This document shows positions 1-62,775 of a stretch of DNA of 64,000 nt, in pieces. The stretch covers positions 9,300,001-9,364,000 of the forward strand of contig CM022666.1 of NCBI GenBank assembly GCA_012295275.1, read 5' to 3'. Under the pieces are notes generated by a model, which worked only from the letters and a program-made list of their open reading frames with translations, did no database searches and was not told the origin of the DNA. This stretch comes from Chrysomallon squamiferum (lineage: Eukaryota; Animalia; Mollusca). Every line of letters starts with the position of its first letter. Within the stretch, counting starts at the first letter, position 1. The position numbers and the translations under genes are program-made.

Positions 1-2350
1 ACATTGCTTTTAAATATAACCATATATATTGCTTTGTAATCTCACTTGCTCTGTAATTTCAGTAACTTTGTTTACATTACATGGAAAAAAAACAAAGAAC
101 TACACAGTATTTGGAATGTCGTTTAATTAATATTTTTATTAGTTTCATGTAAAATATGTGAAAATGGTATTTTAACGATAATAAAATTCTGATAAATGAA
201 AAATGGTAGAAATAACAGAAAGAATAGCCACACATTGTTTTAAAAAAAACTGTTTGGGTTTTTTTGGGGATGATTTATGACTGACATGAAAGGCAGTTTT
301 TCAAGGTTCAAAATAGTTGGTGTAAGGGTGGAGAGAAAAGCAAACAAAATGAATGTTCTGTTTTGACAGGTAGGTATACTAAATATCTCTGCAGATGTTC
401 TAACTGTCCTTAGTGAATTAAATAGATATCTGATAGTTGTAGCTGTGTGATACTCAGTGAAGAGATTCAAGTAGTAATACAAACAATTTAAGTGTGTTTT
501 AACTCAAGTAGTGATACATAAAAAAAATAAGCATTTTCAGATTTTGACTGAAAAAGTGATAAAATGAATTTAAGAATGTGTTGACTGAAGTATTGATATA
601 AATAATTTAAAAATGTCATTGACTAAAGAACTAATTTAAAAAAAAACAAAAAAACTTTGATTGAACAAATGATATAAAGATATTTTAACTGAAGTAGTGA
701 TATAAATAAAGATATATGAACTGAAATTACGTATGTAGTAGATGTGTGAATTGTGTTTGTGTGTACATAATACATCAGCTGTGTGTGAAATATGACAGGT
801 CCTGTTGACATCACTTTTTACCTGTATCTTACCTTCATTTTAACTCTATTTAACTTTTTACAGTCAAAATATTTAAGATTTATTTATTTATTTTGTTTTA
901 TGATTGTTTGAAATTAATTTATCTTAGTGTTTTGGAAATAATAACAAGAAGGAATACTAATGATTAATAAAATAAAGTAAAATGAAATAAACACACACAC
1001 ACACACATGTACACTCACACATTTTTCTCATATGGATATATGTATATTTGTGTATCAATGTGTTCTTGTGTATGTGTATTCACACATACATTTTTCCATC
1101 ATTCTGATTTTCTCTGTTTTTCTTTCACTTCTTCAATCTCTTATCATCTGTTACTCTTTCTCGTACCTTCTCAATGGGTTTTGAGTAGATGCATATGCAT
1201 GTTTCTTTCTATATATAGATGGAGAAAAACAGTGAGAACAAGATTAAGTTTGCTGTGGAATACAGGAAAGGTTTCAGGAAAAGCATGATAAATGTCAAAT
1301 TCAAAATTTACTTTATTATAATTTATATATAATATTTAGTCAAACTTATCTTTACCTAAATATTTTGATTTCCTTAAAACATATTTCTTCCCTTTAGAAA
1401 ATGTAACATATTCCCGTCACAGATATATATGCATAAAATGAATGTGTCTAGCTATAAGGATAACTAATATGTAAATAATTTTATAAATTATTTCTATATT
1501 ACTCTATTTTATTATTATTATTATCATTTATTAATTTTTATTATTATCATTTTTTAATTAAATTTAAAAATGATTTGACATTGCAGATTAGATATCTATG
1601 CCAGACTTGCATAAAATATTTTCTTTTTCTTCCATTTTGCATCACAAAATAAACCTGGTTTAGATTTCATATTCATTTCTTTGTACTGACAACCTAAACT
1701 ACATGCAGCCTAGAAGATAACTGTAAATATTTTGTAAGCTGATTTAACCTGGAATAAATGTAGGTTGGCAGATACAGATTCAGCTGTCATACTTTGCCTT
1801 TGGTATTTATTCTTTCTTTCTTCCTTTCATTTGTTTCTTATTTTTATTTTTTATTGCTTCACAGTCTAAACTTGATGAACTTTTTAATTTTTAAAATCAT
1901 TCTTATATGAAAACTTTTCCTTCATTCATCTCTTTTCTTTCCTTTCTTTTTTCTTTTTCTGTCTTATTTTTTCTTTTTCTTTGTCTCTCTATCTGCATTT
2001 CTCTCAATCTCACTCTCTCTTTCTCTCGCGCTCTCTCCCTCTCCACTATTCCTCCTCATTTCACAGTCCTAGCCTTCTGTGAGAGTTAATATAAATTTAA
2101 ATTGTGACTTTAACATGAAAGTACGTTTCAGATATTTGACATAGTTCAGAATCTGCTATCTTGTCTTGGAAATCCATACCAGCACTGAGAGATAAGTAAA
2201 AACATGGAAAGAAGAAAGAAAAAAAGTTATGTACATGTCCTGATTCCTGTATATCTAAAAATAGAACTGTCTACTAAGAACAAAGCAATGTTTCCAAATC
2301 TGTGTGTAAATAATTTACCATATTTAAGGGGGAAAACAGAACACACACAC

Positions 2351-2389
<39 letters not shown>

Positions 2390-3217
2390 CCACACATCAA
2401 CACATAAAGACACAGTTCAATTTACATTAGTCATGTTATAAACTTGGAGGTTGGGGAAACATCTGTTTATTTATAAATAAAATAAAATTTAAAAGATAAA
2501 AATTGTACAAGTTACGTTAGATGTATTATTATTTAATTTATGTAAGAATTTGTGTCTCAGTAGGCTACAAGATACTTTGTAGTAATTGTAAATAGTTTAT
2601 TTATGTAAAGATTGTAATAATTAAAATGTACAAACAATTACAAAACAGTCATAAGTGTAAAAAAAAAAATACTAGCACTTTTACAAGTATAACCAAAAGA
2701 AAATAATGTAATACATATTGTTAACTGCAAACAATTAAATACATTATATTAAAAGAAAAAATTACATATAGTAAGATATACAAGTGTAAATTGTAAAACA
2801 TGTAATTTGTAGTTAAATAAAATTACATTGTAATACAAATGTCTAACTCAGTTTTATTATCTGTGCTACAAAGTGAGTTTTGTAGCTGCATGTTATTATT
2901 CTGCTCTGTGGCCGGCTGCTGCTGTTTTCATACAAAACTGAAATACTGTATTTGTAATGAACTGATTACAGATGCATACTCAGAGCAGCTACATCAGAGA
3001 ATCCAACATTTATGTCAGATGTGTAATGATTTATTAATATTTATTTTTACTGAAACATTATCTGTAGCCAAGAGAACTAGCATCACCTCAGTTTCCATCA
3101 AATACATTTCTTTATTAATAATATTTCGCTCTCTGTTTCTCTTTTTTCTTTCTGTCACTCTTGCTCTTTTTCTTCCCCCTCTCTTTCTAGATGCACATAC
3201 ATGAAGCCATGTGATAA

Positions 3218-3252
<35 letters not shown>

Positions 3253-4139
3253 TGATAATAAAACTAATAAATTTGGATTTAATGATTATGTACTTGTTAA
3301 GACTAGCAGACTGCAGTGACTCACACATGAATCATTTGATTTTCTTTCTGCAGGGCAGTTATCTAAAACATGTCTAATAGCATTCCGAGACAGAACCAGT
3401 CAGACACACATAACACACTATAATACACAATAACACACAGTAGATGTAATCTAATGTAATTAACACACACTTAATGTAAGATAAAATTAAACACATACAT
3501 CAGTGTTACTGTTAGAAAGTCAAATCAAAACACCCTGACCAACTTAAGATAGAGTGAACAGTGCTAAGAATCAAATAATGAAATTTGAGGCTTCTAATTA
3601 TATACAACAAGAAAAAGAAAGGAATTGTTCTCTATAATTAGAATCCTTGAATTTCAAAAAATTATATATTTAAAATAAAGAAGGAAAGAAATAAAATCTG
3701 TTCTTATTTTAAAAAAAGATTTTTTATTTTATTTTAAACATCTCACTGATTCAGTTATTTAATTTTACTGACTGCATGCTTCCTTATAACTTTTTGTTGT
3801 CTTTATTCCTAAGAAAACAAAGTATTCATAAAGCAATTTATAATTAGCTATGTGTCTCTGGCAATGTTTTTTGGTAGCTGTTTCTTAAATGTTTTCAATA
3901 TTATAATAAATATTATTTTTGGATTAATGCTGCAAGAATACCACAATTGCTCTGTACAAATGTGCATGTGTGTGTGCATGAGTGAGTGAGACACTTTCCT
4001 GTATTTTTGAAATATGCTTCATTTCTGATAGTTCAGTTATGTCCCATGGCAGTATCGGTATACAACAAGTATAGATAACTAATAATGGTCACAAACAAAT
4101 ATATTTACAATTTGTGTATCTTTATTTTTTTTAATTCAG

Positions 4140-16798: not shown

Positions 16799-19700
16799 CT
16801 TTAAATTTAATATATATTTATAAACAAACAGAGAGATTGATAAATATGTTGTATCTTTTGACAAGTAGATGCAGTTTATAACTTTAAACTGGAAATCTAT
16901 TAGAAATCCAACCACTGAACCAACCAACAAACCAACCATCTGTCCATCTGTCCATCCTTCTTTCCATCCTTCCACTTATCTGTTTGTCCATTTCTGTCTG
17001 TCATTCTGCGATCCTCTACATACATCTGTCATTCAACCTATATATACATCTATATATCTATCTGTCTGTTGTTCATTGGTATGTCTCTATGTCTACCTCT
17101 CACTGTTTATACATATCCATCATCATCTATCAATCTACATCTGATATTTCTAACTGCCTTTTCATATACCTTTTGTGTGTGTGTGTATGTGTGTATATAT
17201 ATCTGTATAGATCTATATATATATATATAACATTTTTTTGGTAATTTAATTTTTTTTTTTTTTATCTGTGTATCTTTGCATGTTTCCCCACCAATATATC
17301 TGCATGCATTCCCTCCTGTCTGCCTCAATGCCTACAGACCTAGACACAACCTATATACAGATACAGATTTTTTTCCAGGTATAAAGTTAAATAGATTTGT
17401 TAACGAGAATCCGGCCTGGTGTGTTTAATCAGGTTAATTACAGACTCACATGTCTGAATGTTTCAAACTGTCCTGACTTATTATTTATTGACCTGATATT
17501 TTTATCTCCAGATAGGTTTACCTAGCAACTTTACCTCTTGATAGACTTACCTGATGAATTTACCTGCTGATAGATGGGTATTATTTACCTGGGATATTTA
17601 TAGTGTAGAGTTATTTGTGTTAGTCAGAGCTGTTAGTTTCTGAGGAGAGATTTTAAATTTAGAATCAGTGTTTTGTCATTTTCTACATTTTTATATTTAT
17701 AAGGTAATGTTTACATTTATATTTTTCTGTTACTTTTTTCAGTTTTATTTTAAATTTAGCAAAACTAGTTTTAATTTTCAAAAAAAAAAAGTTTTATTTG
17801 AAAATAGTTCCACAAACATTTAAAATATAATAGGTTTGTTTATTAGTATTTGTTTAAAATAATGTAAGTGCTGTCGTAAATATTTGTAAAATACTTGATA
17901 GTTTGTATAAAAGAAAGTTACTGGTATAAATGTGATGAAAAAATAGATTTGTGTAAAATAAGCTAACAGTTATATGTAAAATAGATTAACAAATATTTGT
18001 AAAACACTAAAGAAACTAGTTTCAGTTAAATACATATGATGTTGCGATGTTGATTTGGATATAACATCTATTTCTAAAAAAACAGATTTATAAAAATTTT
18101 AAATTAAATAAGTCTTGTAAAGTCTGAAATAGTGAAAGATAAAGTATATTAGTAGGTAATGCTTAAATGATGTAGAAATCTGTGTATTTTTTGGACAAGA
18201 ATATTTCATGTTGTCTTTTTTTTAGGCAAATGTCTGTATTTTACATTCATACATCAAACAAACAAAAAAAAATGCAAATCTACACATACAAATGTACACA
18301 CACATCCACACACATACAAACAGAGAAATACAAATAATACATCTGATGCTGGAAGCAGGCTAATGGGTCTGAATAAAATTTGGCTTTTTAAACTGTGCAT
18401 TTGCTGCATACAGGCTTTAACCTGCAGTACTAACTCAGAGTAGATTTTTCTTTTTAAAAACTCACCCAGTTAACAAGACAGTATGTACCTGAATGTCGCA
18501 TGCAGACTTTCTGTTTCAGTTTACTCTACTCTACCCTGCATGACGGTTACTATAGCACCACTACAACATCATCGTCTTCTCACAACGCATCGTTTGAGTA
18601 TGGTCGTAGGCTCGACTCCTCGTTCGAACATCGGCTTGACACGTCCCACGAACGTAGCTTTGATAGTTCGTACGATGAGGAGTATACCAACTATATCAAA
18701 GAGTGGGCTTATAGGTAACAAGTATATGTGTGCATGTGTGGTTTTGTACACAAACATATAGCATATCTGTGTATTGTATACAAGCTTACAACAAATATCT
18801 GTGTATTATACATTAGCTTATAGGAAAGTTTATGTAGAGCACATAGGGTCATTAGGTATAGCTTTATACTGCACCACAGATTATTAAACAAATATCTGTA
18901 TCACACATCAGCTTATATATTTGTGTATTGCACATTAGATATATATGTGTATTACATGTCAGTTGATAGGATATATTTATGTATGTGTGTATGTATATGA
19001 ATATATACATGTGTGTGTGTGTGTGTGTTACATGTTAACTGTAATACATGTATTACATGATAGAGTATATCTGTGTATTGCATATAAATCATGCAGCATG
19101 AAGTAACTGTCTGTGTATGTTCATACCCATTGCTTTTGCATTGTGGTTACATTTGTTTAAGCATTATGTGTATTTTTATGTGTATGTGCATACATTTAAT
19201 ACATTTTTAATTGTTTTTATTATTTAAAAAAAAAAAAAAAAGAATTTAAGAAATAATAATAATAAAACCAGTTGTTTTAAAATCTAAAGATTCAAATTTA
19301 AAACAGGATAATGTTTTCTTTGTTAAATAAAATTATCTTTTTGGTTCATAATAAATTATTAATCTCTGGGTCTGTAATTCAAATATTCAATGTTATATAT
19401 TTTTTATCTTTTATTTTGTCTGAGGAAAAAAAAAATTGGTTTTTCAGTTTCTGTTGATTAGAAAGTGATGTAATTAAGTTTTTACTTTGTATCTGTATTA
19501 CCTTGTTTTACCAGATCACTGTTTTATTTACATCTTTTTTCTTCACATTTTTTAACTTTTGTAGTAATATTAGTTCATACTTTACTTCACATTATTTATT
19601 TTTTTAAATTCACCACTTCACAAATACTTTGAGGGGGTTTTTCTGGGGTTTTTTTAAAATTAAAATTTTATTATAAAATAGTGTAAGAATTTAACTAAAA

Positions 19701-23781: not shown

Positions 23782-24901
23782 GCATATGCTTTTTATGAAT
23801 TTATTTTTCGAATAATTTAATTTAATACATATTTTTTTATTTATTTATAATTTTTATTTTTATTCATTTATTTATGTTATTAATTATTTAAAATATCTTT
23901 AGTTAGTTTTATAGTTAAATATAAATTTTGGAAAATTCATTATACTGACTAATTGACTAATTGATTGATTGATTGATTTATTGTTTATTTTTATAGGTCT
24001 GTCACAAGGCTCTATAAAGCTGTTAGAGGAGTACAAAGAGGCAAATCCAAATTTCACAATTCGTCGTCAACATGAGATGCAGTTAGAAGAACTACAACAA
24101 ATGGACCAACTTAGAAATGTGAGAAATTGAGAGAAATTTTAATACATTATGTTTATTGTTTTATTATTGTTACTTAAATGAGCCAGGACAGTGAGAAAAC
24201 CACAGTTTGAAGCCCAACTACTAGAAATATGACAAACTGATTTTGAAACTGACTAAACACTAATTTTGGTGACGTTAACGATCAAGACAGTAATTAAATG
24301 TTTAAGACACTTTGTCTAAGGATGCAGGGGGTAATTAAAAGATTTGTGAGAAGATATCCTGACCAGTAAATTTTATTTCCAGTTGAGCAAACAGCAGGAA
24401 CTGAATTATGTATGCACACAAACTGACAAGGAATTTCTTTTTTTGAGTGACAGCTTAAATTGTTTCATTGTTTCTTTTTTTCCTTACATTTCTTTGTTTA
24501 ATCTTATTTCACTCCTTTCTTTCTTTTGAATTTTATTTATTTTATAGTTATAAAATAGAAGTATATGTTCGTTGTAATTGCAATAAAAACATTGTAAACA
24601 AGTAATTTACATTACAGACAATTGAAACAAGACTCAAAGTGACTTTACCAGACAATTTACCTGAAGCTTTGAAAGATGGAGTTGTCTTGTGTCACCTTGC
24701 AAACCAAATTAGACCTCGCTCTGTTGCTAGTATCCATGTTCCATCACCAGCAGTTGTAAGTTTTAATGTTTTACTCTGCTATTAGTAAACAAATAAATAA
24801 TAATTTTGAATTATGAAATGAAACTGTTAAAAAAGTAATTTATTAATATTTTTATTTTTTATTTTATAATTGTTTTATAATTTTTTTTTGATGAGGGATG
24901 T

Positions 24902-24933
<32 letters not shown>

Positions 24934-27900
24934 ATTGCAGCCAAAACTGACAATGGCAAAGTGTCGAAGGAATGTAGAAAATTTCTTGGAAGCTTGTCGT
25001 AAAATAGGTGTAAATCAGGTGAGTTAATTAAGAGGTGTTATTAAAAAAATATTTAAAGGCAGGTGTTTTTAAATAACATCTATTGTATGATGCTGTGAAT
25101 CAGGTGAGCAAATTAACAGGTAAAAAGTTGTTAAAAACCAAGTGATATGTAGAATAAAACCAGGATATTTAACTATAGATTTACATGGAAGTTGTATTAA
25201 AAATATATCTATGCAGCCATTCTTGAAATTTTTTTAAAAATAATAATAATAAAATTAATAGTCCACATTTCTGGTTGCTGTATATGTTTATTTTCAAAAT
25301 ATTGTCAAAACACATTTTTTATTTTTTACAAATGTGAACAGTAATGTTACTGTGTTGATATGCAGAATGCATGGAACTGGAGTTGTGTTCTCATGCATGA
25401 CAGCGTCATTTGTTTTTACTGAAACTAAATATATAATTTATTTTTTTTACTCTGTACATCATTTCTGTCTGTTTTTCTTGTTTTGTAATTTTTATTTACT
25501 TTCAGTCAGTGTATTATGATCATTTTATATTTGATCTTTGTTTTTGATTTTTCTACTTTGTAAACTGAAGTTTCCATATGTCTGTTTTTCCTGTCAAATA
25601 TTCGCATCAAATTGTGAGATAGAGTATACAAATTGTTGAAATATTTAATCAGTCACCATGTTGGTCTTTGTGGAATCCATTAATCATGATTAGTCTGAAC
25701 TTAGCAGTTTGTTTTGTTTATCTTGGTACACAGATTGTTTATAAGAAAAACAAAATTATGAAGACATATTTTTAATTCTGGTTTTGACAACAGCAAGAAC
25801 AAATAAATGTCTCAATATTGTTATTTAAGCAGGTAACAAATCTAAAACTGATTTGGGTTGGAAATTGTTCTCTAATTCTGTCCTTTTGAAATTAATTTCA
25901 TCAAACTTTAATAGATGGGTATATCAGGATGTCAGATATTCTCAGTGTAAACAAGATAGCATGATAGCTATACTTATAATCTAATTAATCAAGATTATAG
26001 AAACCATCTATATAAAATAAATAAATAAATAAATAAACATTTGTAGCAACCAGCATTTTTCCAACTTGACATCCTAATTGTGGGTCCTGCACATTACAGT
26101 CCCAGCCCTTCAAATATTTATTACTCATTTTGAATGCTAGATTGGTACTTATTTGTCAGAACTCAGTATTTCTGTAGATTGCTTGTAAACTGATGATTTT
26201 ATATACATGGAAAATGTTCATATGGAAACAGTTCTATTCATGAAATATGTTGCACTGTGAATTGTTTTCATGTTTTTTGTTGTTTTTTATTTATTATAAT
26301 TAATGTTTTAATTTTTTTTTGTCAGTTAACAAGTTTCTTTGTTATCATTTATTTAAACAGACTGAAACAAAAATTAAGTGTGATAACATTCAAATACATT
26401 TTGATTAAAACTTATTCATCAAAATAAATTATTTTAAAACAAAAGATATTTTGATTTAAATTGAGAATACACATTCTCAGTTTAAATGTAACCATTAAGT
26501 TACAGTTAAGTTTTTGTACATTAGTTTACCAAATGTATATGTGTTTTGAATACTCACGTTATGTTTTCAGTATATTATTTATTTAACTAGGTATTGTTTG
26601 TTTTAATTATTTATTGTATTATTTATTATAAGTATTATTTATGTAAATGTGTTGTATCACACACTGCACTGTGCTGTTGTCTGGTGTCTGAGTTTTAACT
26701 AACAACACCTTCTTGGACAACATCGGCTACTGGGCCGTCTTTGTTGTGGTTCATGTTCATTTTGACACTTTTGTTTGACATTTCTACTAACCTGAATCAG
26801 GGCTTTTGAGAGGATTAAGGGATTTTTTTTTTTTTTTTTAATCAACATTCAACACCCCACTCCCCACACCCCCACCCCATACCCACCAATAATTTCTCAG
26901 CAAACTAATAATGTCATCTCTTTTGGTGGGTTTTTAATTAATTTTATCAAATAATTAATTAATTATAAATATTTAAAAAAACAAACAAAAAAAACAACTT
27001 ACTGAAATGTGAAATTATCATCAAAGTTTATCTTTCAAAGTTTGAACATAAAGTATTTTTACTTACAATTTCATCTGAGACAACCATTTGTAAATAATTT
27101 TTTTTTTTTTTTTACAAAATCCTTACTGATTATTATAAAGACTATTTTTAACTGAGTTTGACTTATTGTTAACTGAATATTTTAATGTTATGATCAGTTT
27201 AAACTGGTTTGTTCTTAAATGTTTAAAATGAGAAGAAGCAGAGAAAAGTAAATTTGTAAATTTACTTCAGAGCAATGTAATCCTCTTGAGGGATTAAAGA
27301 AATAATTTTAATCTTAACAGAAAATACTAACTGTAATTAATAGGTTTGATTCCAAATGTAGATTTGATTGAAATCCATTTAGAAATAACAAAAATTGCCT
27401 CTGTCGGCATACAGAGTAAAGTCATTTTAATACTGGCTCTATTGTTTTAAATGTTCACTGATTTTAAAAGGGAATATATCAGGATACACACTAAGATAAA
27501 ACTGGTTACATTAATTTCAAAAAGGAATTGATCAGGGTACATAGTACAGATTTTGTAATCTGCTTTTACTGAACATGATTGTAAGTGTTCATGATAGGAT
27601 ATCATTTAAAACTGATTATATTAATTGTAATAGAGAATTATGTTAAAGGAAACATTGGATGGAAATCTACACTAAAATTAACAAATGTACTACACCAGTC
27701 GGCAAGGATGACAGCAGATGCTTTAAACTGTTAAAAATGGTTGAAAAATATATACCTTTCAGTACATAAGTTGTTACAGATGTAGGTAATGAACTTTCAG
27801 TTTATATGTTACAGATATAGGTTATGATGCTTTGTGTATATGTTCATTCAACTGTAGATCTTAGTTGTAAGTAGATAAAACACAAATTATGAAAGAAATG

Positions 27901-30900
27901 GAAATCAGGCTGAAAATGGACCACAGTGTGTGAAATAAAATACATCTGATGTACAAAAATTGTGTAGTTAATGACAGTGTAGTTTACCACTTGTGAAGAA
28001 TTTGACAAACAAAACTTCTTATCTGGAAGAAAATAAAAGAGAAACTTACGAAACAGTCCCCATCCAAGTGAAGGTAAGTATTTTATTCTTAATTTCTGTA
28101 TTGCAAGTTAACAAATTACCCAGAAAATCATACTCATACAGTCTATAAATATATACAACTTTATTCACCTATACTAACTGAGGTAGCTGGGAAATGAATA
28201 ATGCTTTTTTGTTCACTTTTTTTTTTTCCTATTTTCTATTTTTTAAATAATTAATCTAGGCCCTCTTTTAATCTTGACAGCCGCAGTTACTTGTATTAAT
28301 TACAGTGTTTTCTAGATTCATCTTCTAAAAATAATAAATATATATTACCAAAGTTATGTAAAAAAAATAATAATAAAAATGTTGTGGTCATTTTTTATTT
28401 TTTAGTCAGCTGTTTTGCCCATTAAAATCTTTAAATGAAATGGAAAGGTTTACAAAAAAATAATAATAATAATAAAAAATAACTAATAAAAAATAAATAA
28501 AATATAAACAAATTTGTAACTATAAATTTTTTTTTTTTAAATGTAGGTATTATTGTTAAAAAAAAGAAGATTCATTGCCTCTATCTGGAGTGGTACAGAT
28601 CATTTCAGTACTGACACGCTGAACTGAAATAACGTTTATATACCAGAGTAATTAAATGGCTGTTTAATTCAACCATAGAAAATCAAACTTAAAGTTTAAT
28701 AAGAACATTCTCTGATTTTGAAAAGAAATGTCAAACCACATTAGTTTCATTTGTTTTAAGTTTCTTTTCATTTAAAACGTTTTTCATCTTGCATTGTTGT
28801 CTTCCCAGCATGCAGTTTAATCAAAATGGCTGACATCTGTTGCACAGTTTTAGCTTGTTTGCTTTTAGCTCATCCATTGTGAAATTGTTCTTCATTATTT
28901 TTTTTTTTCAGTTTCAACTTCATTTGTTTCTACTAACCAACTTAACATTTATGTTTATTGTTAACTGTAAATCTTTAACCACAGTTTGTGATTATTAGAG
29001 GACGTATAGACATACAGACTGATATACTGACATTCATAAATAGTTCACATTTTTTTCCTTTTCCTATTTTTTTAAAAAGTAACAAAATTAACAAAATCAG
29101 AAATTATTAGCCAAAATTTAAGACTGATTACTAGATCTAAATTTAAGTTTTAGATTCTAGCTTAAATGAGTAAAAATATATATGTTAATTTTTATAAATG
29201 ATATTAATAATTGAAAGGAATTAAAATTCACATATACGTGGGTGTCGTTTTTTCAGAGAGATCTCTGTAGTTGTGAGGACATTACAGAGAACCTTCGACC
29301 TGTCCGCGTCGCTAAAACTGTGCAACACTTAGTGGCCTTCCCTCGACTAACAGCACGCGACTACCACATCACCTACCTGTGCATCAGCATCTTGTGTCTC
29401 ACCTGTTTACTGCTCTTCTTAAAACCTCTGTGAACTGTAGACTAACTATTTTATGAAAGCATGTAGACTAATTGAAATGTGTGTGAGTTAATAGTTGTGT
29501 GAACTCACAGAGTAACCAAGTACTTTGTGAAAACTGTAGACTAATTAAAACATGAACTCACAGTAGATTAACTTTTTGTTAAAATGTATTGACTAATTAT
29601 AATGTGTGTGAACTACTTTGTGTGCTAACTACTTTGTGAAAACAGAACAAACTAACTTGTATGAAAATACAGACTAACTACACATAGATTGTCTTGTATG
29701 ATATTTCAACTAAAAACTGTTTGAAAACATTAACAACAAAAATTGTGTGAATTGTGCAGATTAATATTTGTGTGAAATGCTAGTAGACAAATTCCATATG
29801 AACAAGTAACAGCATAACAGCTGTTAAAACATAGATCAGTAATCTATATGTGTGAAAATATTAAAATTTAAAAAATCATGCATCATTTTATAAAATCTTA
29901 GTGAAGACCACTAGATTACTTTACAAAAATTTCAGTTCTTGTTAATTATTTTAAAATAAATATGTTTATTTGTTATTTGTCACATACAAGCCAAGTGTCA
30001 TGCTGTCCTTTTTTCTTTCTTTTATTTAAATTGGTTTTTTAAATTGTCACAGTGTTAAACAGAACATTGGATACATTTTTACATTGTATATGTAATTAAG
30101 GCACATAAAATAAATGTCCAAAAGCTGTTTATTGGGAGTATTTATGACATGTGACTTTCAGCATTTAGATTAAAATAAAATTGATAAAAATAAAACTACA
30201 GGATGATTATGACTATAGCAAGTAGATTCAAATATGATAAAGATTTAAGGTATGTGATGTCTCATCAGTAATGTCACTGATAGCAAATAGATTGAGAAGT
30301 AGTATATATTAAAGTGTAGAGTTAGTGCTGTAATATTGTCAATTTATCACTGATATGATAAGGATTTACTAATACTTGAATTTTATAAAGAAAATGGATT
30401 ATTTGATACAAATAAATGTTAATTAATGTATTAATATTGCAGGTTTATGGTCACAAAACAATACTATTTGTTAATTTCTAATAATATACAAATCCAGTTT
30501 AAAAAAAAGAATGGACAATTTAGTGTCTTTTGTGAAGATGTATGGTAATAAAGACAATGTATATAAAGATACACTGATATATAAAAAATATTTTATAGCT
30601 GTACAAGATTAATCTCAGAAATATTTCAAAAGTAAGTAATTACAACAAAAACAAAAACTGCATACATTTGAGTTTGGTTAACAGGAAACAATTAGATAAC
30701 ATGAGATTTGTAATATATTATTGCTTTTATTATTATTTTATTATTATTATTTATTATTATTGTTATTATTATTTTTACTATTATTATTATTATTATTATG
30801 ATTATGATTATAATTTTTGCTATTGTTATTATTATTATTAATATTGCATAGGTAATAAAATTATTAAATATAGAGGAAATAAAGAATACAACTGCTTGCT

Positions 30901-32557: not shown

Positions 32558-33306
32558 CTGTTTTTGATTGTATTTTAATACTAAGAGACTGCATCATTCT
32601 ATAAGGCACTTTCATTGGTTAGTAGCAAGATAATCTTTATAAGAACTTTCTAGAAAAATCACAAAGACACAGCATAACCTTTTATTACCAGTTATGGCTG
32701 GAATGCAAAAACAACACATGTAGTACTCCAGCCTATTATTTTTTTTTTTTTCAAACATTTTTATATAAGAATTCTTTAGATCTGTAATTTAAAAATGAAC
32801 ATACACTTGTCACAGGACAAGTTGAATTAGTTGTTTCTTTGAAAGCTGATACCTTTATTGTTAAATGTTTATCTGTAATAAAAATTAATTTCCTTGAATT
32901 GTACTTTATTATTATTATTTATTTGTCAGTTTTTTCTTTCCAATTTTTTTTTTTTTTTTTTTTTTAACTAGCTTCTGAGGAGAACGATGTGCTGATCATT
33001 ATTATTGTCATCATCATCATTTTAATTGTCATGTTATTACAAATAGATATTAATTGTTATTAATTTCTACATTAATTATAATTTATTTTGTGATAATGTG
33101 AGCTAACCATAGTAAAATTAGATCATTATTATTGTTAGTTTTACACAATATCGATGATTTACATTTAGCTGTTTTATTATTAAAGAAATATAATTTCATA
33201 TTTTAAAAGAATATTTGTTTTTATTTATTTTATTTGTTTTGTTACTGACATTGTAACATTCGTATGTTATGATAAAAATATATAAGTACTGAAGATCTAT
33301 TGCTGC

Positions 33307-33348
<42 letters not shown>

Positions 33349-33501
33349 TTTGTTAAAAATAACTAATACACATATTTAATTTTTCAGGAGCAGGTTTGTT
33401 CAGCGCATGATGTACTGGATGAACGAGGCATCTCCCGTGTGGCTATCACAGTTGCAGCCCTTGTTGCTATTGGCACCAACCCTAAACAATCTGCTGTCTG
33501 A
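4140..33501 (+). CDS. LRCH: Leucine-rich repeat and calponin homology domain-containing protein (LRCH family), multi-exon, 5'-partial (exon 1 upstream of window)
   Basis: Phase-consistent GT-AG exon chain: 4140-4284, 5145-5274, 5703-5808, 6378-6514, 7044-7174, 7731-7854, 10019-10282, 11805-12047, 12286-12425, [13545-13607], [18520-18714], 20838-20993, 21286-21604, 22049-22183, 22782-22911 (or -22851), 23997-24118, 24618-24755, 24941-25018, then 29257-29433 or 33388-33501. It encodes LRRs (DLSKNRL, LDVSCNEI, LDNNPL) and an LRCH-type CH domain (DGVVLCHLANQIRPRSVASIHVPSPAVPKLTMAKCRRNVENFLEACRKIGV). The vertebrate paralogue number cannot be assigned. Confidence 0.93.
4700..5112. repeat. Foldback (inverted) element built from ~33-bp AT-rich subrepeats
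   Basis: 4701-4878 (attttccag...ctttattaataataaag...attaaataacaaa) is approximately the reverse complement of 4961-5112. Confidence 0.7.
5145..5274 (+). CDS. LRCH: LRCH exon, LRR (SRNQLTVLPPYLCHLQMLEVLIGSNNKLVSLPEEIGKLEKLMDL)
   Basis: poly-T ttag acceptor, gtaaat donor, phase 2 to 0; not in the ORF track. Confidence 0.92.
5703..5808 (+). CDS. LRCH: LRCH exon, LRR (DVSCNEISHLPVQIGDLTSLKCLNIRRNLLVELPV)
   Basis: ttttcag acceptor, G|gtctgt donor, phase 0 to 1. Confidence 0.92.
6378..6514 (+). CDS. LRCH: LRCH exon, LRR (EISKLNLRKLDFASNRIEKIPTVFRKIDTLQEIILDNNPLSVPPAH)
   Basis: ttacag acceptor, gtgagt donor, phase 1 to 0. Confidence 0.92.
7044..7174 (+). CDS. LRCH: LRCH exon, LRR C-cap (ICTRGRQHIMKFLQNEAVREDRKRG...)
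   Basis: gtcag acceptor, gtgagt donor, phase 0 to 2. Confidence 0.88.
7172..7440 (+). repeat. ~33-bp minisatellite starting at an LRCH splice donor
   Basis: about 8 copies of cagtaagtacatttgttcagatttacttaaaaa. Confidence 0.8.
7731..7854 (+). CDS. LRCH: LRCH exon (TSDEFRNILDSPESRWKRHTVLSSDSGYSTTDSIEKCGWSE)
   Basis: tttcag acceptor, GAG|gtgagt donor, phase 2 to 0; DSGxxS/T motif. Confidence 0.88.
10019..10282 (+). CDS. LRCH: LRCH exon, proline-rich (GSSEYEEVNILAIKAAE...LEDQFTR)
   Basis: tag acceptor, AGG|gttagt donor, phase 0 to 0, GC-rich open frame. Confidence 0.85.
11805..12047 (+). CDS. LRCH: LRCH exon, E/R/Q-rich helical segment (ELQRQKMDYERRKK...EELRRQ)
   Basis: ctag acceptor, CAG|gtatta donor, phase 0 to 0. 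Confidence 0.87.
12286..12425 (+). CDS. LRCH: LRCH exon, E/R-rich helical segment (EELRLQEEERQREE...RTKLDN)
   Basis: ttacag acceptor, gtatgt donor, phase 0 to 2. Confidence 0.87.
13545..13607 (+). CDS. LRCH: Candidate 63-nt symmetric cassette exon of LRCH (RSTTRPTPRRHTVTVDTSKK)
   Basis: aag acceptor, AG|gtatat donor, phase 2 to 2, open frame, local GC/CpG island in a CpG-poor intron. Confidence 0.6.
15828..16495 (+). repeat. ~54-bp intronic minisatellite
   Basis: roughly a dozen copies of ttacctgtaatctaacagtgttttaatgatataacagttacctatattcagaga. Confidence 0.9.
18520..18714 (+). CDS. LRCH: Candidate 195-nt symmetric exon of LRCH (LLYSTLHDGYYSTTTT...EYTNYIKEWAY)
   Basis: tttcag acceptor, AG|gtaaca donor, phase 2 to 2, CpG-rich open frame. 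Confidence 0.75.
20838..20993 (+). CDS. LRCH: LRCH exon (NKQQLGTSQSFKEERKVQNAQYRRTTSD...NYINR)
   Basis: ctcag acceptor, gtatgt donor, phase 2 to 2. Confidence 0.8.
21286..21604 (+). CDS. LRCH: LRCH exon, Ser/Thr/Pro-rich (GVAEDINTSADSAAS...RNNTVVS)
   Basis: cacag acceptor, gtaagt donor, phase 2 to 0. Confidence 0.85.
22049..22183 (+). CDS. LRCH: LRCH exon, coiled-coil-like (EEEFKQKHQALSNKHQ...QNYVSK)
   Basis: tccag acceptor, AAG|gtttct donor, phase 0 to 0. Confidence 0.82.
22782..22911 (+). CDS. LRCH: LRCH exon with two in-frame donors (RGTNEVEDKKKSTISSGSRSART[GKCLNGPNRLTHSSPGTHAP])
   Basis: gacag acceptor after (TAT)n; donors G|gtaagt after 22851 and G|gtatgt after 22911, both phase 1. 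Confidence 0.8.
23997..24118 (+). CDS. LRCH: LRCH exon preceding CH domain (GLSQGSIKLLEEYKEANPNFTIRRQHEMQLEELQQMDQLRN)
   Basis: ttatag acceptor, gtgaga donor, phase 1 to 0; PxFTIRR motif typical of LRCH proteins. Confidence 0.9.
24618..24755 (+). CDS. LRCH: LRCH CH-domain exon (TIETRLKVTLPDNLPEALKDGVVLCHLANQIRPRSVASIHVPSPAV)
   Basis: ttacag acceptor, gtaagt donor, phase 0 to 0; calponin-homology signature. Confidence 0.95.
24941..25018 (+). CDS. LRCH: LRCH CH-domain exon (PKLTMAKCRRNVENFLEACRKIGVNQ)
   Basis: ttgcag acceptor, CAG|gtgagt donor, phase 0 to 0. Confidence 0.95.
29257..29433 (+). CDS. LRCH: LRCH alternative last exon A: CH C-terminal helix plus C-terminal transmembrane anchor (RDLCSCEDITENLRPVRVAKTVQHLVAFPRLTARDYHITYLCISILCLTCLLLFLKPL*)
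   Basis: tttttcag acceptor, phase 0, completes the CH fold, hydrophobic tail. Confidence 0.85.
   Translation, partial: RDLCSCEDITENLRPVRVAKTVQHLVAFPRLTARDYHITYLCISILCLTCLLLFLKPL
33388..33501 (+). CDS. LRCH: LRCH alternative last exon B: CH C-terminal helix plus class I PDZ-binding end (EQVCSAHDVLDERGISRVAITVAALVAIGTNPKQSAV*)
   Basis: tttttcag acceptor, phase 0, paralogous to exon A (xxCSxxDI/V...RVAxTVxxLVA); ends in S-x-V. Confidence 0.87.
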   Translation, partial: EQVCSAHDVLDERGISRVAITVAALVAIGTNPKQSAV

Positions 33502-33606
33502 CAGTTAGGGGAGCTGCTAGGGGGGGTTGCCTGTCTCTTTATTGTGCTGGTTTTATTACTCACTGCCACTGAACAAATGGGCATTCCTGTGTATCCATAC
33601 ATGTAA
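33502..33606 (+). other. Candidate stop-codon readthrough extension of LRCH isoform B (QLGELLGGVACLFIVLVLLLTATEQMGIPVYPYM*)
   Basis: TGA CAG TTA = stop+CARYYA context; 34 in-frame sense codons with exon-like GC content encoding a ~19-residue hydrophobic helix; ends at TAA 33604-33606. Confidence 0.55.
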
Positions 33607-34152
33607 CCATGGCAACCATAATGACCCAAGAAGCAAAGTCTATCTATGAGACATGCAAGTGGGTTTGTGAATTGAGGGGGTTATTCTCGTTTTTTAGTTA
33701 TTCATAGAATTTATTTTCAGAATAATATATATATAAAAAAATTAAAGGTAATGATGATAAAAAGATGAATTTCAATTAAGTAAGTTAAAAAAACAAAAAG
33801 AAAAATATAAAGTTCTGTTAAGATACTTTTAGGTGTTTTTTTTACAGTTTTGATTTATATTTGTTATTGCAGATTAAGTGTGCCATGGTTGATTTTTAAA
33901 TAATGTTTTAACACAGGATGTTTGTTCAGCACTGGTTGAGAAATTGTTTTATGTAAATAATGTTTTGTCTTTTGCTACATTTTTTTATCATTTTACATGT
34001 CTTAATGGCCTTTGTACTTACATATAGAAGGGATTTTTTTTTTTTAATTTATTATATTTCCTCAGTGTTCTTTATTTTTATTTTTATTTTTTTTTTATAT
34101 TCATAAAAATTTAAATGTACATTTGTTGGGTTTTATTTGTTTATTTATTTAT

Positions 34153-34218
<66 letters not shown>

Positions 34219-37200
34219 CACATTCTTCTGTCACATAACAAAAATGAAAACCAAAGATCAATTTTATTTCATTCAGCTTCACTGCCAGCATTTTTTAAAT
34301 CATTTAGTTCAGTCTTTTTATCGCAGACTGAAAAAACCTTTTTCTATGAGTGGGGAAAACAATTCTAATAATTACCTTGATGATAGTTTTAAAAAGTAGG
34401 TCAATTATTCAGTATAATTTAAATTAACTCATTAAAAGAATGCAATCCTATAAAACACTCTCTAAACAAGACACACAAACTTGCAGTTAGAAATATTTCT
34501 GTTTTTTCTTGAATTAAATTTTCTCCACAATTATGTTTTATTTTACATTATTATTATTATTTTCAGAGATGTTCATTTTATATTATTAAAGTCTTTCATT
34601 AAATTAAACTTTAAAGACAAAAATTGTAAAATGCTGATCTGTGCTGTGATTAGATGGTGAAGGTCATGTGATCTGTAATAATATTGAAACAACAACTTGT
34701 TACTGTTAGAACAGTTTTCTCAGTGGACTCTCATTCTGTTTTACAATTAACATGCATAATTCAGAGTTGAATGCAGAACTATAAAGTCTCTATGGTGACT
34801 TGAAATGTTTGCCATGGTAATTGAATTTACTCAAATGATTGGCAGATTTTTAGTCATAATATCATTTTTATTATTATTATTATTTTTTAATTATTATTAT
34901 TACTTAATCATTATTATTTATATATTAATTATGATTTATAATTAACAGAATCATAGCTCATTTAAAAGGTATCATCATCAAATGATAGATACTAAGAATA
35001 ATTTTGTACAAGTTTTATTTCATACAAATCTCTTATTTATCTACGCATTTTTAAAACCATTCCCAAGATCCTTCAGAATTAGGGTCAGCATGTTTATGTT
35101 TTGTCATTTGTCATATTTTTTGTTTCTGCTTATAAATTAATTTATGTTAATCAAAACATGTATATTATTTTGCAGTGTAGAAATCGAATAGAAAGTTTTA
35201 AAATGTTTTTGTATGTTTCTCAACCAGTATGACATGGCAGTGAATATGTAAATTATGTACAGACATTTTTAAAACTGTATTACAGAAGTGTGCAATAGAT
35301 TAACAGTTACAAAAAACACAAAATACATAGTAATATATTTTTAAGTGGTAAACTTCCAGATAATTCAAACAAAATTTAAAAAACACTTTGAAAAAGATTT
35401 CTCAATATTTTTAGTTCTTGTTTATTTTGATTTAGTTTTTAGTTTGAAAACAGGGTGCATTATAATGTGTGTTTCATTATAAACATTAATTTTTGTTATC
35501 TTACAAAATTAACAATGATGACTAAAATAATATCAGTGTCAACTAACTTATTTTTACAAAGCTGTTTTTCTTCTTTCTTTTTAACCAAAACCTTTAATTA
35601 TATTTAAAGTATATGTAAGAATTTGATAAAGAGTATATTGTATTGAAAAAGAAATAATAAAACATGAAAAGAGAAATTTTGTTAAAATTCTATGACTAAA
35701 TCGTTATTTTATAATTGCTTGTAATTATTTTTATCTCTGAAGCACTCTTAAAATCTTTATCATCTAAACTGTGGTGTTTTGGGGATTTTTTTTCTGTTTA
35801 TAATTTTTTTTTTATCAAGCAGCTCATTACAAAACAAACTTTGTAAAACTTTTGATAGCTCATGTTAACAACAGCAGAAGACAATCATTTGATTTTGCTC
35901 ACATCAATAATTTCAAACTAACATCAATTCATTTAAATATTAACTCAGTTTAACCACAAAATTAGCACAAGTAATTTATTGTTTTTGTTTTTGTTTAGGT
36001 ATTTGTTTTTCTTTCTCAAGTACAATGAATACAAAATTGCAGGAGATTTTAATTATTTATTCATTAATTATATTATTTTTCATTAATTATATTTATATAT
36101 TATTACAACATTCTTTTTTAATTTCAGATTTACATTATAACTAAGAAAAATAAACAGTATATATATATATATATTAAATGTTTCAGTTTGTTATGGTGTT
36201 TATTTTTACTCTTATTACTTCATAAAAGAAAAGTTAAATTAATTAAATAATGTATGTTAGATAATTTGATCTAAACTTTAACATAAAAGTAAATAACACA
36301 CATTGTAGTGCTCAGTATCTGTAGAATTCCACAACTGGGTATGTACTGCTCTATACTCTATTTAGATCATTATTTTATGTTTCAGTACTTTTATCTTTAA
36401 AGCTACTGTCAGTTACAACTAGTTCTGAGATGGAGAGGTTTATATAGCTTAATTTTATTTCATTTGGTGTCTGAACTTATTATTATTTATTTCTTTGTTT
36501 TTTGTTTTATTATCAAAGAAAATGGTGATCAGCCACTACTACTGTCATATCACATACTGTCTTACAAATTTCATGTTAATATTACTGCTACTAGGATTTT
36601 CAAATATTCCTTTTTAAATTACTTATTTTATCAGAAAAACAGAAATCTAAGTACATGGTGGATACATTTAAAGAGCAACATAAATAAAAATATTTTGTTG
36701 TTTGTTTTTGTCAACAAGTCATCACCATTTTTATTTTATTTATTACGTACATATACATGTATGTGTAAGGGGAGGTAATCATTGACTACACACACAGACA
36801 GACAGATGGGCAACAGACGAAAGACGAACCTAGCAGCCAGTAATCTCCTGTTTTCTTGTGACACAACTGAGTGCTTCCAACTTGTGTGAGCAGTGTATGT
36901 TGTGAGCAGTTTTGTTTCTGCTTCTTGTAGCTACCATAGCAACACATTTCAGAGTCCATACAGTCTTTGTTTTAAAGTAATTAGAACAAAAATAAAAATA
37001 AACTAAGAAAAAATCTACTTTATTTCAGAAATTAGAAAAATACTTTAAATACTTTTAGTGAAATAATTGTTAAAGAAAGAAGTTGGGATAAACTGTATGG
37101 ATTCTGTTGTTTCTTACTGTATGTATACTGAAATTTATTTGACTGAAAATGGTGTGAGATAAAATATTACATCTATGCAAATCGCAAAACCTTGTGTAGT

Positions 37201-37851
37201 TTGTTGCTTTGTGAGATGACTATTTAGCCGTTTTCTTTAATAAAAACACATAAACAGATCTGTTTGATGAAATGTATTTTTAACAGTGAAATGACATGCT
37301 CAGATACAAATGTCACTGGTGCACTTGCACAATGTTTTAAGTATGTAAAAAAAAAATATCTGCCTTGTTTGAAATGTGTGTAGACAACAATATGTTTGAT
37401 TTCTCATTTTACTTAGTCTCTTTTTTATACATGTTTATTACTTCAATTTCCTCAATGTTACATAAATGTATTTTAACGTAGTCTGAGAAGTCAGAATTTT
37501 ACTTTTTGTTTTTAAATATTACATTGATATATGTATGTGTTATTTTGTATATGAAGTATACGAAGTATATTAAAGATATGTGAAATAAATGAATGAATGA
37601 ATAAATAAATAAATAAATATGTTAAATAATGAGTAATTGAATTTTGAAATTTTTATTGCACACAGGTATTGGATTAGTAAATAGGATTAGTGGATTTCAG
37701 ATCACTGCAAGTTCTACAGTTTTCATTTTACCAAAATTACAACAGTTTATAACAAAAAGCAGTCATTTCTAATTTTATAAACATGGTCAAAAACCACTGT
37801 ATTATTGTAAATTAATAAATATCTTTAATTCAATTTCTCAATTTATTAATG

Positions 37852-37910
<59 letters not shown>

Positions 37911-39752
37911 AACTGTAAATATATATTGCTATAGATTACTAGTGTAATATTTAAAATAAAACTCCAGAACAAAGGCAGGTCCTTTTTCAAAAAAAAAAAA
38001 AAAAAAGTTTTCACTTCTCTATATTTTACAAATACAGCCAAAATGTTTTCTCTAATTACACATTATACATATTTTTATATGTCAGCATTGAAAATATACT
38101 CATAAAAGTGTTTAGCTGTTTGTGATAAACAATGTATTCCAAAGACTTCAATTTCTTATGAGTAAATAAAAAGTTGATGATCTGAAAATATTTAAAATGT
38201 GTTTCTCTATATCTAAATTGTTTTTAAAATATACATCTCATTTGTTGGCATAATAATTCTTCTTTTAAATAATTTTTAAATGCATTTTTCTCTCTCTCTC
38301 ATCCCTTTACCTTTTTTTTCATTCGTGTTCCCTGCTTTTTTCCCCGTCTCACCCCCATCCTTTTTTTCTCTCAAATGTATATCCACAAACACAACACTGT
38401 TGTGTTTTTATAAAACTATTTATTGTGTAAATGTTTTCTTTTTTCTTGTATAAATTTAACAGTTCTACATACCACATACTGCTAGTCTTAATAAACAAGT
38501 TTGTACATACTGACGTGTTTGTTGTTTCTGTTGTTTTGAAGTGGGAAGGAAATACTAATGTAAAGAGATTTTATTTATTAGTGGACATGTCTATCTTATG
38601 ATTCAGTAGTAGTCTATCTGTGTCTTAGAACATAGGTATAAAACAGAAGACAATCAGATTAACAATCAGACTGCCATTAGAATAGATTGTCCATCCAGCC
38701 AAACTGAGAAACATTAAAATGTAACAAAATACATGAATATTTACACAGCATTAAAACCAACAAATTTTTGCCTAAAAATCAATACATAAACATGAAATAT
38801 TGAAGGAAAAAAAGATATGTGCACCAATTACATTATACATGTCTATAAATTATTTATATCTATAATAGGACAGGATAATATAGGATAATTTGGATCACAT
38901 AAAGATAATTAATTGAAGGTAACTCGTAATAAGTATGCTTCATTTCATCAGTATGCACATAAAATGCTTCCACCAATTTCATTCCTGCTACTAAATAATT
39001 TTAAAAAGTAGATGTCATGACCCTCTATCCCTTCAACTTGAAAGCTGCATAAAAAATAAATTAAGAAACAAACTAATGACTATAAAACAAATTGTTTTAT
39101 TCTTAGTATTAAACCATTGGTTACATTAATTTTTTGATATTAGTCGTTTTTTATTTAGTTTTTTTTTTATACATTTTTTAAAATTATTTAGTTAGTTTAT
39201 TATTCATTTACTTGAATTTTATTTATTTATTTATTTATTTTGCTAAAATTAGAGTATTTCATTTTCACACTCAATAAGCCCTCAGATAATCGATAACAAT
39301 AAGAAATTAATAAAAAAATAGAAGCACTAAATTTTGTGTGTTCCGATTTACCTTCATCACGTACTGTACAGAAAATCATCAAAATGATAAACACTAAAGT
39401 TGAAATAAATAAACATTATTTTACATAAACTTTCACGTGGACTTCCTTCGTTTTTATTGTAGTTCATTTTCAACGCGAAATAATTGTGTCGTCTGCTGCT
39501 TCCTTTGACGGACTGTGACGTAATGGTAGTCCGTCGAAAACTATAACTAAAACTATGGTAGACAACTAGTCTTCACTTACTGAAAACAACAGAATGGATG
39601 GGGATTTGTATGTCTGTCGTAATATTCCTATAGATTTCTTCTTCTTCTTCTTCTTCTTATTCTTATTATTGATATTTTTATTTATTTATTATTATTATTA
39701 TCAGCATCATCATTATCATCACTAAAGAAAAATACGGAGCGGCTGTTAACGG

Positions 39753-62277: not shown

Positions 62278-62775
62278 ATGAAAATCAACCCGATTCAGAC
62301 ATGTTGGATACTGGTCGTCTGTTTTCAACTCGCCCTTTCTATGACCGTGAACTCTTATAGAAATACTGATTCTGTCGGTCACGTTAAAATTCTGAACGAG
62401 GACAAACTGCGATGGTTGATGTCAGGACCAGCGAAACAAGAACCTGTAAATTTAATTTCAAAGCTCTACAAATTAATGGAGGAATTTAAGACAACTACAC
62501 AACCGGAAGGCAACAGTGGATTTAACAAAGAACATGCGAAACGAATGAAACCGAGCTTTAATCCAACCGGATGGCGTAGGAAGAGGGATGTTGGCTGGAA
62601 TACAGAATTGGAACAGGCGCTGAACAGAGCTTATGAATCACCAGATAACTCTCTTCAGGAAAAAGCTGACGAACAGTGGCGAAAGAGAACGATTGAGCAC
62701 CGTTCGTCTAGAAGGAATTTTGACGATCGTTCGTTAAAACGAGAACCTCTACAGTTTAACCCTACCGGCTGGTAA
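62278..62775 (+). CDS. Secreted neuropeptide/prohormone-like precursor with two FNPTGW peptides
   Basis: N-terminal hydrophobic signal-like stretch (WILVVCFQLALS); basic cleavage sites KR, RRKR, RKR, RR, KR; KR-MKPSFNPTGW-RRKR and KR-EPLQFNPTGW-stop; upstream acceptor ttttag at 62238; AATAAA motifs downstream. Confidence 0.85.
   Translation: MKINPIQTCWILVVCFQLALSMTVNSYRNTDSVGHVKILNEDKLRWLMSGPAKQEPVNLISKLYKLMEEFKTTTQPEGNSGFNKEHAKRMKPSFNPTGWRRKRDVGWNTELEQALNRAYESPDNSLQEKADEQWRKRTIEHRSSRRNFDDRSLKREPLQFNPTGW

Follow-up and report, generated by a model that had tools for sequence, protein, structure and literature searches.

Functional stop-codon readthrough has been catalogued chiefly in insects, together with a few mammalian cases. 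Among the species tested for it, abundant readthrough was found only in Pancrustacea, according to the available portion of PMC5100048. The sequence context of the stop codon is treated in the accessible parts of two further sources: UGA-CGG is among the contexts listed for animal viruses (PMC4132726, PMC13517186), in an OPRL1 reporter, readthrough at UGA-CAAUUA reached about 15%, about equal to UAG (PMC4132726), and the type I motif requires no downstream structure (PMC13517186).

In human and mouse, LRCH1, LRCH3 and LRCH4 have isoforms with and without a putative C-terminal transmembrane segment, and the functional difference between these forms is presented as an open question in the available sections of PMC7536344. 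Neither transmembrane segments, nor PDZ, nor isoforms are mentioned in PMC2923620. Lrch (CG6860) is absent from the searchable supplement of PMC5100048, a 687-row table with gene names (one further file was unreadable), and from 8,584 characters of the PMC3840789 supplements, where its absence carries little weight because the supplements were covered to that extent. A literature search of titles and abstracts, with most subscription papers outside its scope, returned no report of readthrough in LRCH, in agreement with the original prediction, which knew of none. Within the same scope we found no readthrough report for any mollusc gene and nothing that combines readthrough, a transmembrane segment and PDZ.

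The LRCH gene and its alternative last exons

The DNA analysed here (the window) is 64,000 nucleotides long, and its + strand encodes an LRCH protein, a regulator of the cytoskeleton, from about 4140 to 33606. When proteins from Haliotis, Littorina and Batillaria were placed on it by tblastn, the leucine-rich repeat exons, the middle region and the CH exons were collinear and bounded by canonical splice sites. LRCH proteins are recognized by leucine-rich repeats at the N-terminus combined with a CH domain at the C-terminus; here both are encoded in a single gene, and Pfam detects both in a homologue. The exons between 4140 and 33498 match named LRCH proteins in order, which bears out the gene assignment made from the sequence at the outset. 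What is probably an alternative LRCH exon, with a high content of Tyr, Ser and Asp, lies at 18519-18716 (+); similar optional inserts occur at the same place in some Haliotis and Littorina models.

The gene has two alternative last exons, A and B (Table 1). Exon A had been proposed to supply a hydrophobic tail by splicing, and indeed a Haliotis rubra model has the same ending, with 37 of 58 residues identical at the C-terminal end. For exon B the closest named match is likewise from Haliotis (33/37), which makes a gastropod source most likely, and in a homologue of 939 amino acids the Pfam CH domain extends to residue 929. The heads of the two exons are homologous (none of 5000 shuffles scored as well), and 29257-29433 and 33388-33498 each hold a copy of the last CH helix, duplicated in tandem. 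A shared origin of the exon-A tail and the sequence that follows the stop codon of exon B found no support, as 184 to 3800 of 5000 shuffles score as well. Two models, P0022 (Batillaria) and P0029, join exons A and B, which is probably an artefact of gene prediction.

Elsewhere in the window, a single open frame at 62281-62775 (+) resembles a secreted neuropeptide precursor; it has a signal-peptide-like start, two repeats ending in FNPTGW and the basic cleavage sites KR and RRKR, and it has no Pfam match.

Table 1. Features of the LRCH gene around its alternative ends (window coordinates)
Feature	Position	Strand	Basis
LRCH CH domain, first exon	24618..24755	+	80-84% identity to Haliotis and Littorina LRCH (tblastn); splice sites
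CH domain second exon, donor joins exon B	24941..25018	+	tblastn; splice sites; contigs of X7, X8 and X3
Alternative last exon A: duplicated last CH helix and hydrophobic tail, TGA at 29431-29433	29257..29433	+	predicted, from homology
Last exon B, coding part: CH domain end, then -SAV at the C-terminus	33388..33498	+	33/37 identical to Haliotis; acceptor ttttcag
First stop TGA, likely leaky	33499..33501	+	sequence; no variant listed in 6 runs of this organism that cover it
CAG TTA, match to CARYYA	33502..33507	+	sequence; CARYYA directly follows 3 of 1204 TGA on the + strand of the window
In-frame extension of 34 codons	33502..33603	+	25/34, 25/34 and 21/34 identity, gapless, in three gastropod-like gene calls
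Predicted transmembrane helix (residues 5-23 of the extension, with a hydrophobic core at 9-19)	33514..33570	+	Kyte-Doolittle 19-residue mean 2.65; AlphaFold helix
Second stop TAA	33604..33606	+	sequence; likeness to relatives stops there
Palindromic X-box-like motif that contains most of the proposed 3' stem arm	33603..33616	.	found 6 times in the window (0.55 expected)

An open frame follows the stop codon of exon B

The coding part of exon B closes with TCT GCT GTC (-SAV) at 33498, directly before the TGA, and the frame then stays open up to a TAA. The original prediction had placed the TGA, the CAG-TTA, the 34 open codons, the TAA and the two 7-mers of a proposed stem, and every one of these lies exactly where it was put. 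It had also described a coding-like GC content that gives way to an AT-rich untranslated region: the GC fraction is 0.48 in the extension and 0.47 in the 16 upstream exons, and drops to 0.39 in the next 102 nt and to 0.13 in the 102 nt after that. On the + strand of the window, at least 34 open codons follow 416 of 4436 stop triplets, and when a 19-residue hydropathy peak of at least 2.6 is added 29 of the 4436 remain. Together with the scarcity of CARYYA after TGA (Table 1), each of these features is by itself modestly beyond chance, and the pattern is suggestive, not decisive. What places the extension beyond chance is its conservation across lineages.

Conservation of the extension in other gastropods

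We sought relatives with the 72-residue read-through translation. The search returned many LRCH proteins that end in -SAV and, in addition, five unnamed gene calls that continue past -SAV with a W. P0031 was pooled with P0003 as one cluster, which gives four clusters, and P0020, P0027 and P0033 were excluded as unrelated. This sample is small and ascertained, as its members were found through similarity to the extension and solely as calls in which TGA is read as W.

The extension is present, in frame and gapless in three of the four clusters that run past -SAV. P0002, whose exon-B part is identical to Physella acuta (37/37), and P0003/P0031, whose exon-B parts match Littorina saxatilis in 28/28 and 32/33 residues, each share 25 of 34 extension residues with the window; P0018, closest to Aplysia in its exon-B part (34/37), shares 21 of 34. 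None of 100,000 shuffles reaches any of these values. Compared with one another, the three relatives are identical at 20-23 of 34 positions, and 17 of the 34 columns are invariant. The reference species belong to Heterobranchia and Caenogastropoda, and Haliotis to Vetigastropoda, so that three gastropod subclasses are represented. Their divergence dates back over 400 million years.

Conservation runs as far as codon 35. At this position the window has TAA, P0018 terminates, and P0002 and P0003 have W. Past this codon the tails share 2/19, 2/34 and 0/19 residues. The named models of Physella (8/8) and Littorina (3/3) end at -SAV, so the first stop is common to the lineages. Since these models end there and the tail of P0003 holds 8 W in 89 residues, we infer that W in the relatives' calls is a TGA decoded by a gene caller that used another code, and a second TGA at codon 35 is then likely in P0002 and P0003. 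In three of four clusters, then, the second reading frame is kept without a shift as far as a second stop that is itself conserved and that is read from W in two of them. The extension is omitted from every named gastropod LRCH model that we examined.

The original prediction had called for an alignment of orthologous 3' ends and had named indels or stops in the frame of close relatives as evidence against readthrough. At the protein level the alignment supports readthrough in three of four clusters (gapless, 21-25/34, ending at the second stop), but P0028, the fourth and more distant cluster, matches exon B in 18/37 residues and lacks the extension (0/34). Searches for the DNA of the relatives gave no usable locus: a metagenome scan produced 112 pattern matches, none of which was confirmed by alignment, a pattern scan returned one unrelated bacterial-type locus (L001), and genome and viral scans had no matches.

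The pattern of conservation also bears on a rival in which ribosomes reinitiate, or initiate leakily, at CTG codon 5 or ATG codon 26 and so make the extension as a micropeptide of its own. Leu5 and Met26 are indeed invariant in the four sequences. However, the ATG has the larger part of the conserved block on its 5' side, and Leu2 and Glu4, which precede the CTG, are likewise invariant. An independent reading frame would also have no need of the constant frame and distance from the first stop that we observe. We regard a micropeptide as very improbable.

Probable constraint on the protein sequence

Conservation of the 102 nt could instead reflect a non-coding element of the 3' untranslated region, with the open hydrophobic frame a by-product of DNA conservation. 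As a proxy for this case, the window extension was mutated uniformly until its amino acid differences equalled those of each relative. About 15-24 uniform nucleotide changes are enough to give equal amino acid identity, and the replacement types are not clearly protein-like in two of the three comparisons (mean BLOSUM of replacements against uniform DNA change, P 0.41, 0.34 and 0.021). Summed over the three relatives, on the other hand, the hydrophobic core has acquired 1 non-hydrophobic residue against 5.0 in simulations (P 0.027), and the replacements cluster within codons, with 8 multi-nucleotide replacements against 3.4 (P 0.020); the corresponding values for absence of charged or polar core residues and for absence of W are P 0.11 and P 0.38. 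Taken together, these values give modest support for constraint at the protein level, as the three comparisons share the window branch, and so are not independent, and several statistics were tried. Stronger arguments come from the lack of gaps, the unvarying frame and the loss of similarity past the second stop. A non-coding element is unlikely given that four lineages are gapless up to an in-frame second stop, that no Rfam family reaches its gathering score and that the RNA folds worse than shuffled sequences.

Transcripts and variants across the stop codon

Eight of 11 sequencing runs were examined over 33352-34060 as assembled contigs. X7 and X8 are RNA from one study, and X3, from a second study, is labelled "DNA?" but is spliced. 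Each of these three runs has one spliced contig in which 33388 directly follows CH exon 2 and the sequence extends across the TGA and the extension into the untranslated region; the loose ends of the contigs at 33384 match CH exon 2. In X2, X6 and X9 the contigs cover the region and include the intron, while X10 and X11, from organism B, have no contig across exon B at 80% likeness and only short chance pieces. The mature mRNA, as represented by three spliced contigs from two studies in which minor forms are invisible, therefore carries the stop codon and the downstream frame unspliced and unedited.

We looked in the same contigs for a joint at or near 33505, a check proposed at the outset, and found none inside 33388-33606 in X7, X8 or X3, with the proviso that assembled contigs lose minor splice forms. 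No difference at the TGA is listed in these three contigs, and minor edited forms, like minor splice forms, would escape notice in data of this kind. X9 has two synonymous third-position changes, at 33405 in exon B and at 33597; the latter is the sole variant seen inside the extension. All listed indels are located beyond base 1 of the second stop. One of them, a duplication of 9 nt at 33604 in X7 and X6, preserves the TAA. An antisense open reading frame at 33384-33680 was considered as a source of constraint and dismissed because the natural variant at 33597 places a stop codon in it.

The alternative that the extension is coding but reached by splicing was raised in the original prediction, which pointed to the CAG at 33502-33504 as an in-frame acceptor. 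CH exon 2 could be joined directly to 33505, or 33394-33504 could be removed. The CAG is in phase 0, on a matrix of the gene's own 16 donors the GT at 33394 reaches 9.7, above 99.4% of background GT, and contigs can hide minor isoforms. The acceptor is poor, however: 33505 scores -5.3 on the matrix of the gene's own 18 acceptors, where 17 of 18 true sites score at least 3.4 and one scores -7.8. Additionally, P0018 has Arg as its first extension residue, and no Arg codon ends in AG, and relatives carry Ile or Leu where the donor requires a Val codon; neither splice site is therefore common to all lineages. Either route would also remove about 27 residues at the end of the CH domain. Among 54 models of more than 200 amino acids with the CH motif, 53 end in -SAV, one ends with exon A and none carries the extension. 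With no joint in the three spliced contigs as well, the splicing explanation is weakened in spite of its strong donor, and we consider it distinctly unlikely.

That the TGA is recoded, either as Trp after A-to-I editing or as selenocysteine, is extremely improbable. One loose SECIS-core-like pattern is present at 34346, but 1.6 such patterns are expected in 2.9 kb and this one has a weak fold, an Rfam scan of 33300-38000 detects no SECIS family, and A>G at 33501 is not listed in the three spliced contigs.

The proposed readthrough signal

The leaky context of UGA followed by C is present in the window as TGA-CAG-TTA, which matches the CARYYA signal on which the original prediction relied. In the relatives, at the protein level, the extension begins with Gln-Leu in two and with Arg-Leu in one, so that P0002 and P0003 are compatible with CARYYA but the Arg of P0018 breaks it, and the motif is not strictly conserved. 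If the Arg codon of P0018 is CGG, its context could be the type II-like UGA-CGG.

Pairing of 33525-33531 with 33611-33617 had been proposed as a stimulatory stem, and this part of the prediction was rejected. All of 200 shuffles of 33499-33640 fold better than the native sequence (z +2.41), as do 198 of 200 shuffles of 33502-33606 (z +1.83), and the 3' arm lies in a repeated palindrome beside the 9-nt length polymorphism. The poor folding of this region fits a type I motif that acts without structure, as the available part of PMC13517186 describes it. The readthrough signal is probably the local context alone.

The palindromic motif, which resembles an RFX X-box, occurs in the whole window at 14883, 33603, 34808, 36930, 42036 and 61682, and the copy beside the second stop is probably unrelated to readthrough.

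The predicted product

A membrane anchor is predicted from hydropathy, as the 19-residue Kyte-Doolittle peak is 2.3-2.65 in the window and the three relatives. Residue 21 is Asp in two relatives, one of which also has Arg at residue 20, so that the hydrophobic span is shorter. An AlphaFold model of the 72 residues, made from a shallow alignment and of low overall confidence (pLDDT 70, pTM 0.38), was used only for the extent of the helix, a block with pLDDT of about 90. The extension has no Pfam match.

A free C-terminus of the form S-x-V fits the class I PDZ ligand consensus, and an extension would remove the free end. The -SAV terminus is accordingly a predicted class I PDZ ligand. Distant LRCH last exons (P0037-P0039) end in -SVV instead of -SAV, which still fits S-x-V and suggests selection on the ligand consensus.

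A proposed conserved switch between two LRCH forms

We conclude that gastropod LRCH probably represents an ancient, conserved case of programmed stop-codon readthrough. Of the original reading, readthrough itself stands as the best explanation, with gapless conservation and unbroken transcripts behind it, whereas the stem is unsupported and CARYYA is not strict. The last exon ends in TGA-CAG-TTA and is followed by the conserved frame of 34 codons. The majority of ribosomes would stop at the TGA and release soluble LRCH with -SAV as a predicted PDZ ligand, while a minority would pair a near-cognate tRNA with the TGA and go on to make the predicted transmembrane tail. In this second form the CH domain would remain intact, the free -SAV would be lost and the protein would be anchored by its tail, some 11-15 residues of which would span the membrane. 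The sequence itself, the uninterrupted spliced transcripts and the conservation among the proteins are observed; passage of ribosomes beyond the TGA, insertion of the helix and masking of the PDZ ligand are what we infer.

Both LRCH forms would then derive from one mRNA, a PDZ ligand being traded for a membrane anchor. On balance we favour the view that gastropods have kept this translational switch, between a soluble PDZ-binding scaffold and a membrane-anchored form, since before their main subclasses split, in parallel to the anchor that is spliced from the duplicate exon. If true, this would be the first mollusc case within the literature searched, and it would hint that functional readthrough in molluscs has simply gone unsurveyed. 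A deeply conserved mollusc case would be a ready target for reporter assays and motivates a survey across the phylum. It would also bear on how tailed and tailless LRCH forms differ, the question posed in the available sections of PMC7536344.

Comparison with known systems

As far as the accessible parts of the sources describe them, animal readthrough genes, both those of Drosophila and Anopheles (PMC5100048) and the OPRL1-type UGA-CUAG genes (PMC4132726), share with gastropod LRCH the TGA-C, a first stop common to relatives and an in-frame second reading frame with a conserved end that is somewhat less conserved than the upstream coding sequence. The LRCH context is CARYYA, in contrast to the CUAG of the mammalian genes (PMC4132726). 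LRCH also differs from the Drosophila, Anopheles and mammalian cases in that its host is a gastropod and its extension is a predicted membrane anchor. With the type I UAG-CAR-YYA signal of TMV, as given in the available parts of PMC13517186 and PMC4132726, it shares the 3' hexanucleotide, and no stimulatory structure was detected in LRCH; it has UGA instead of UAG, it is a cellular gene and one relative has Arg at the first position after the stop. Finally, the mammalian LRCH isoforms, in the sections of PMC7536344 available, involve the same leucine-rich repeat and CH protein in soluble and predicted tail-anchored forms; there the forms are isoforms and not products of readthrough, whereas here a second tail would lie behind the -SAV stop.
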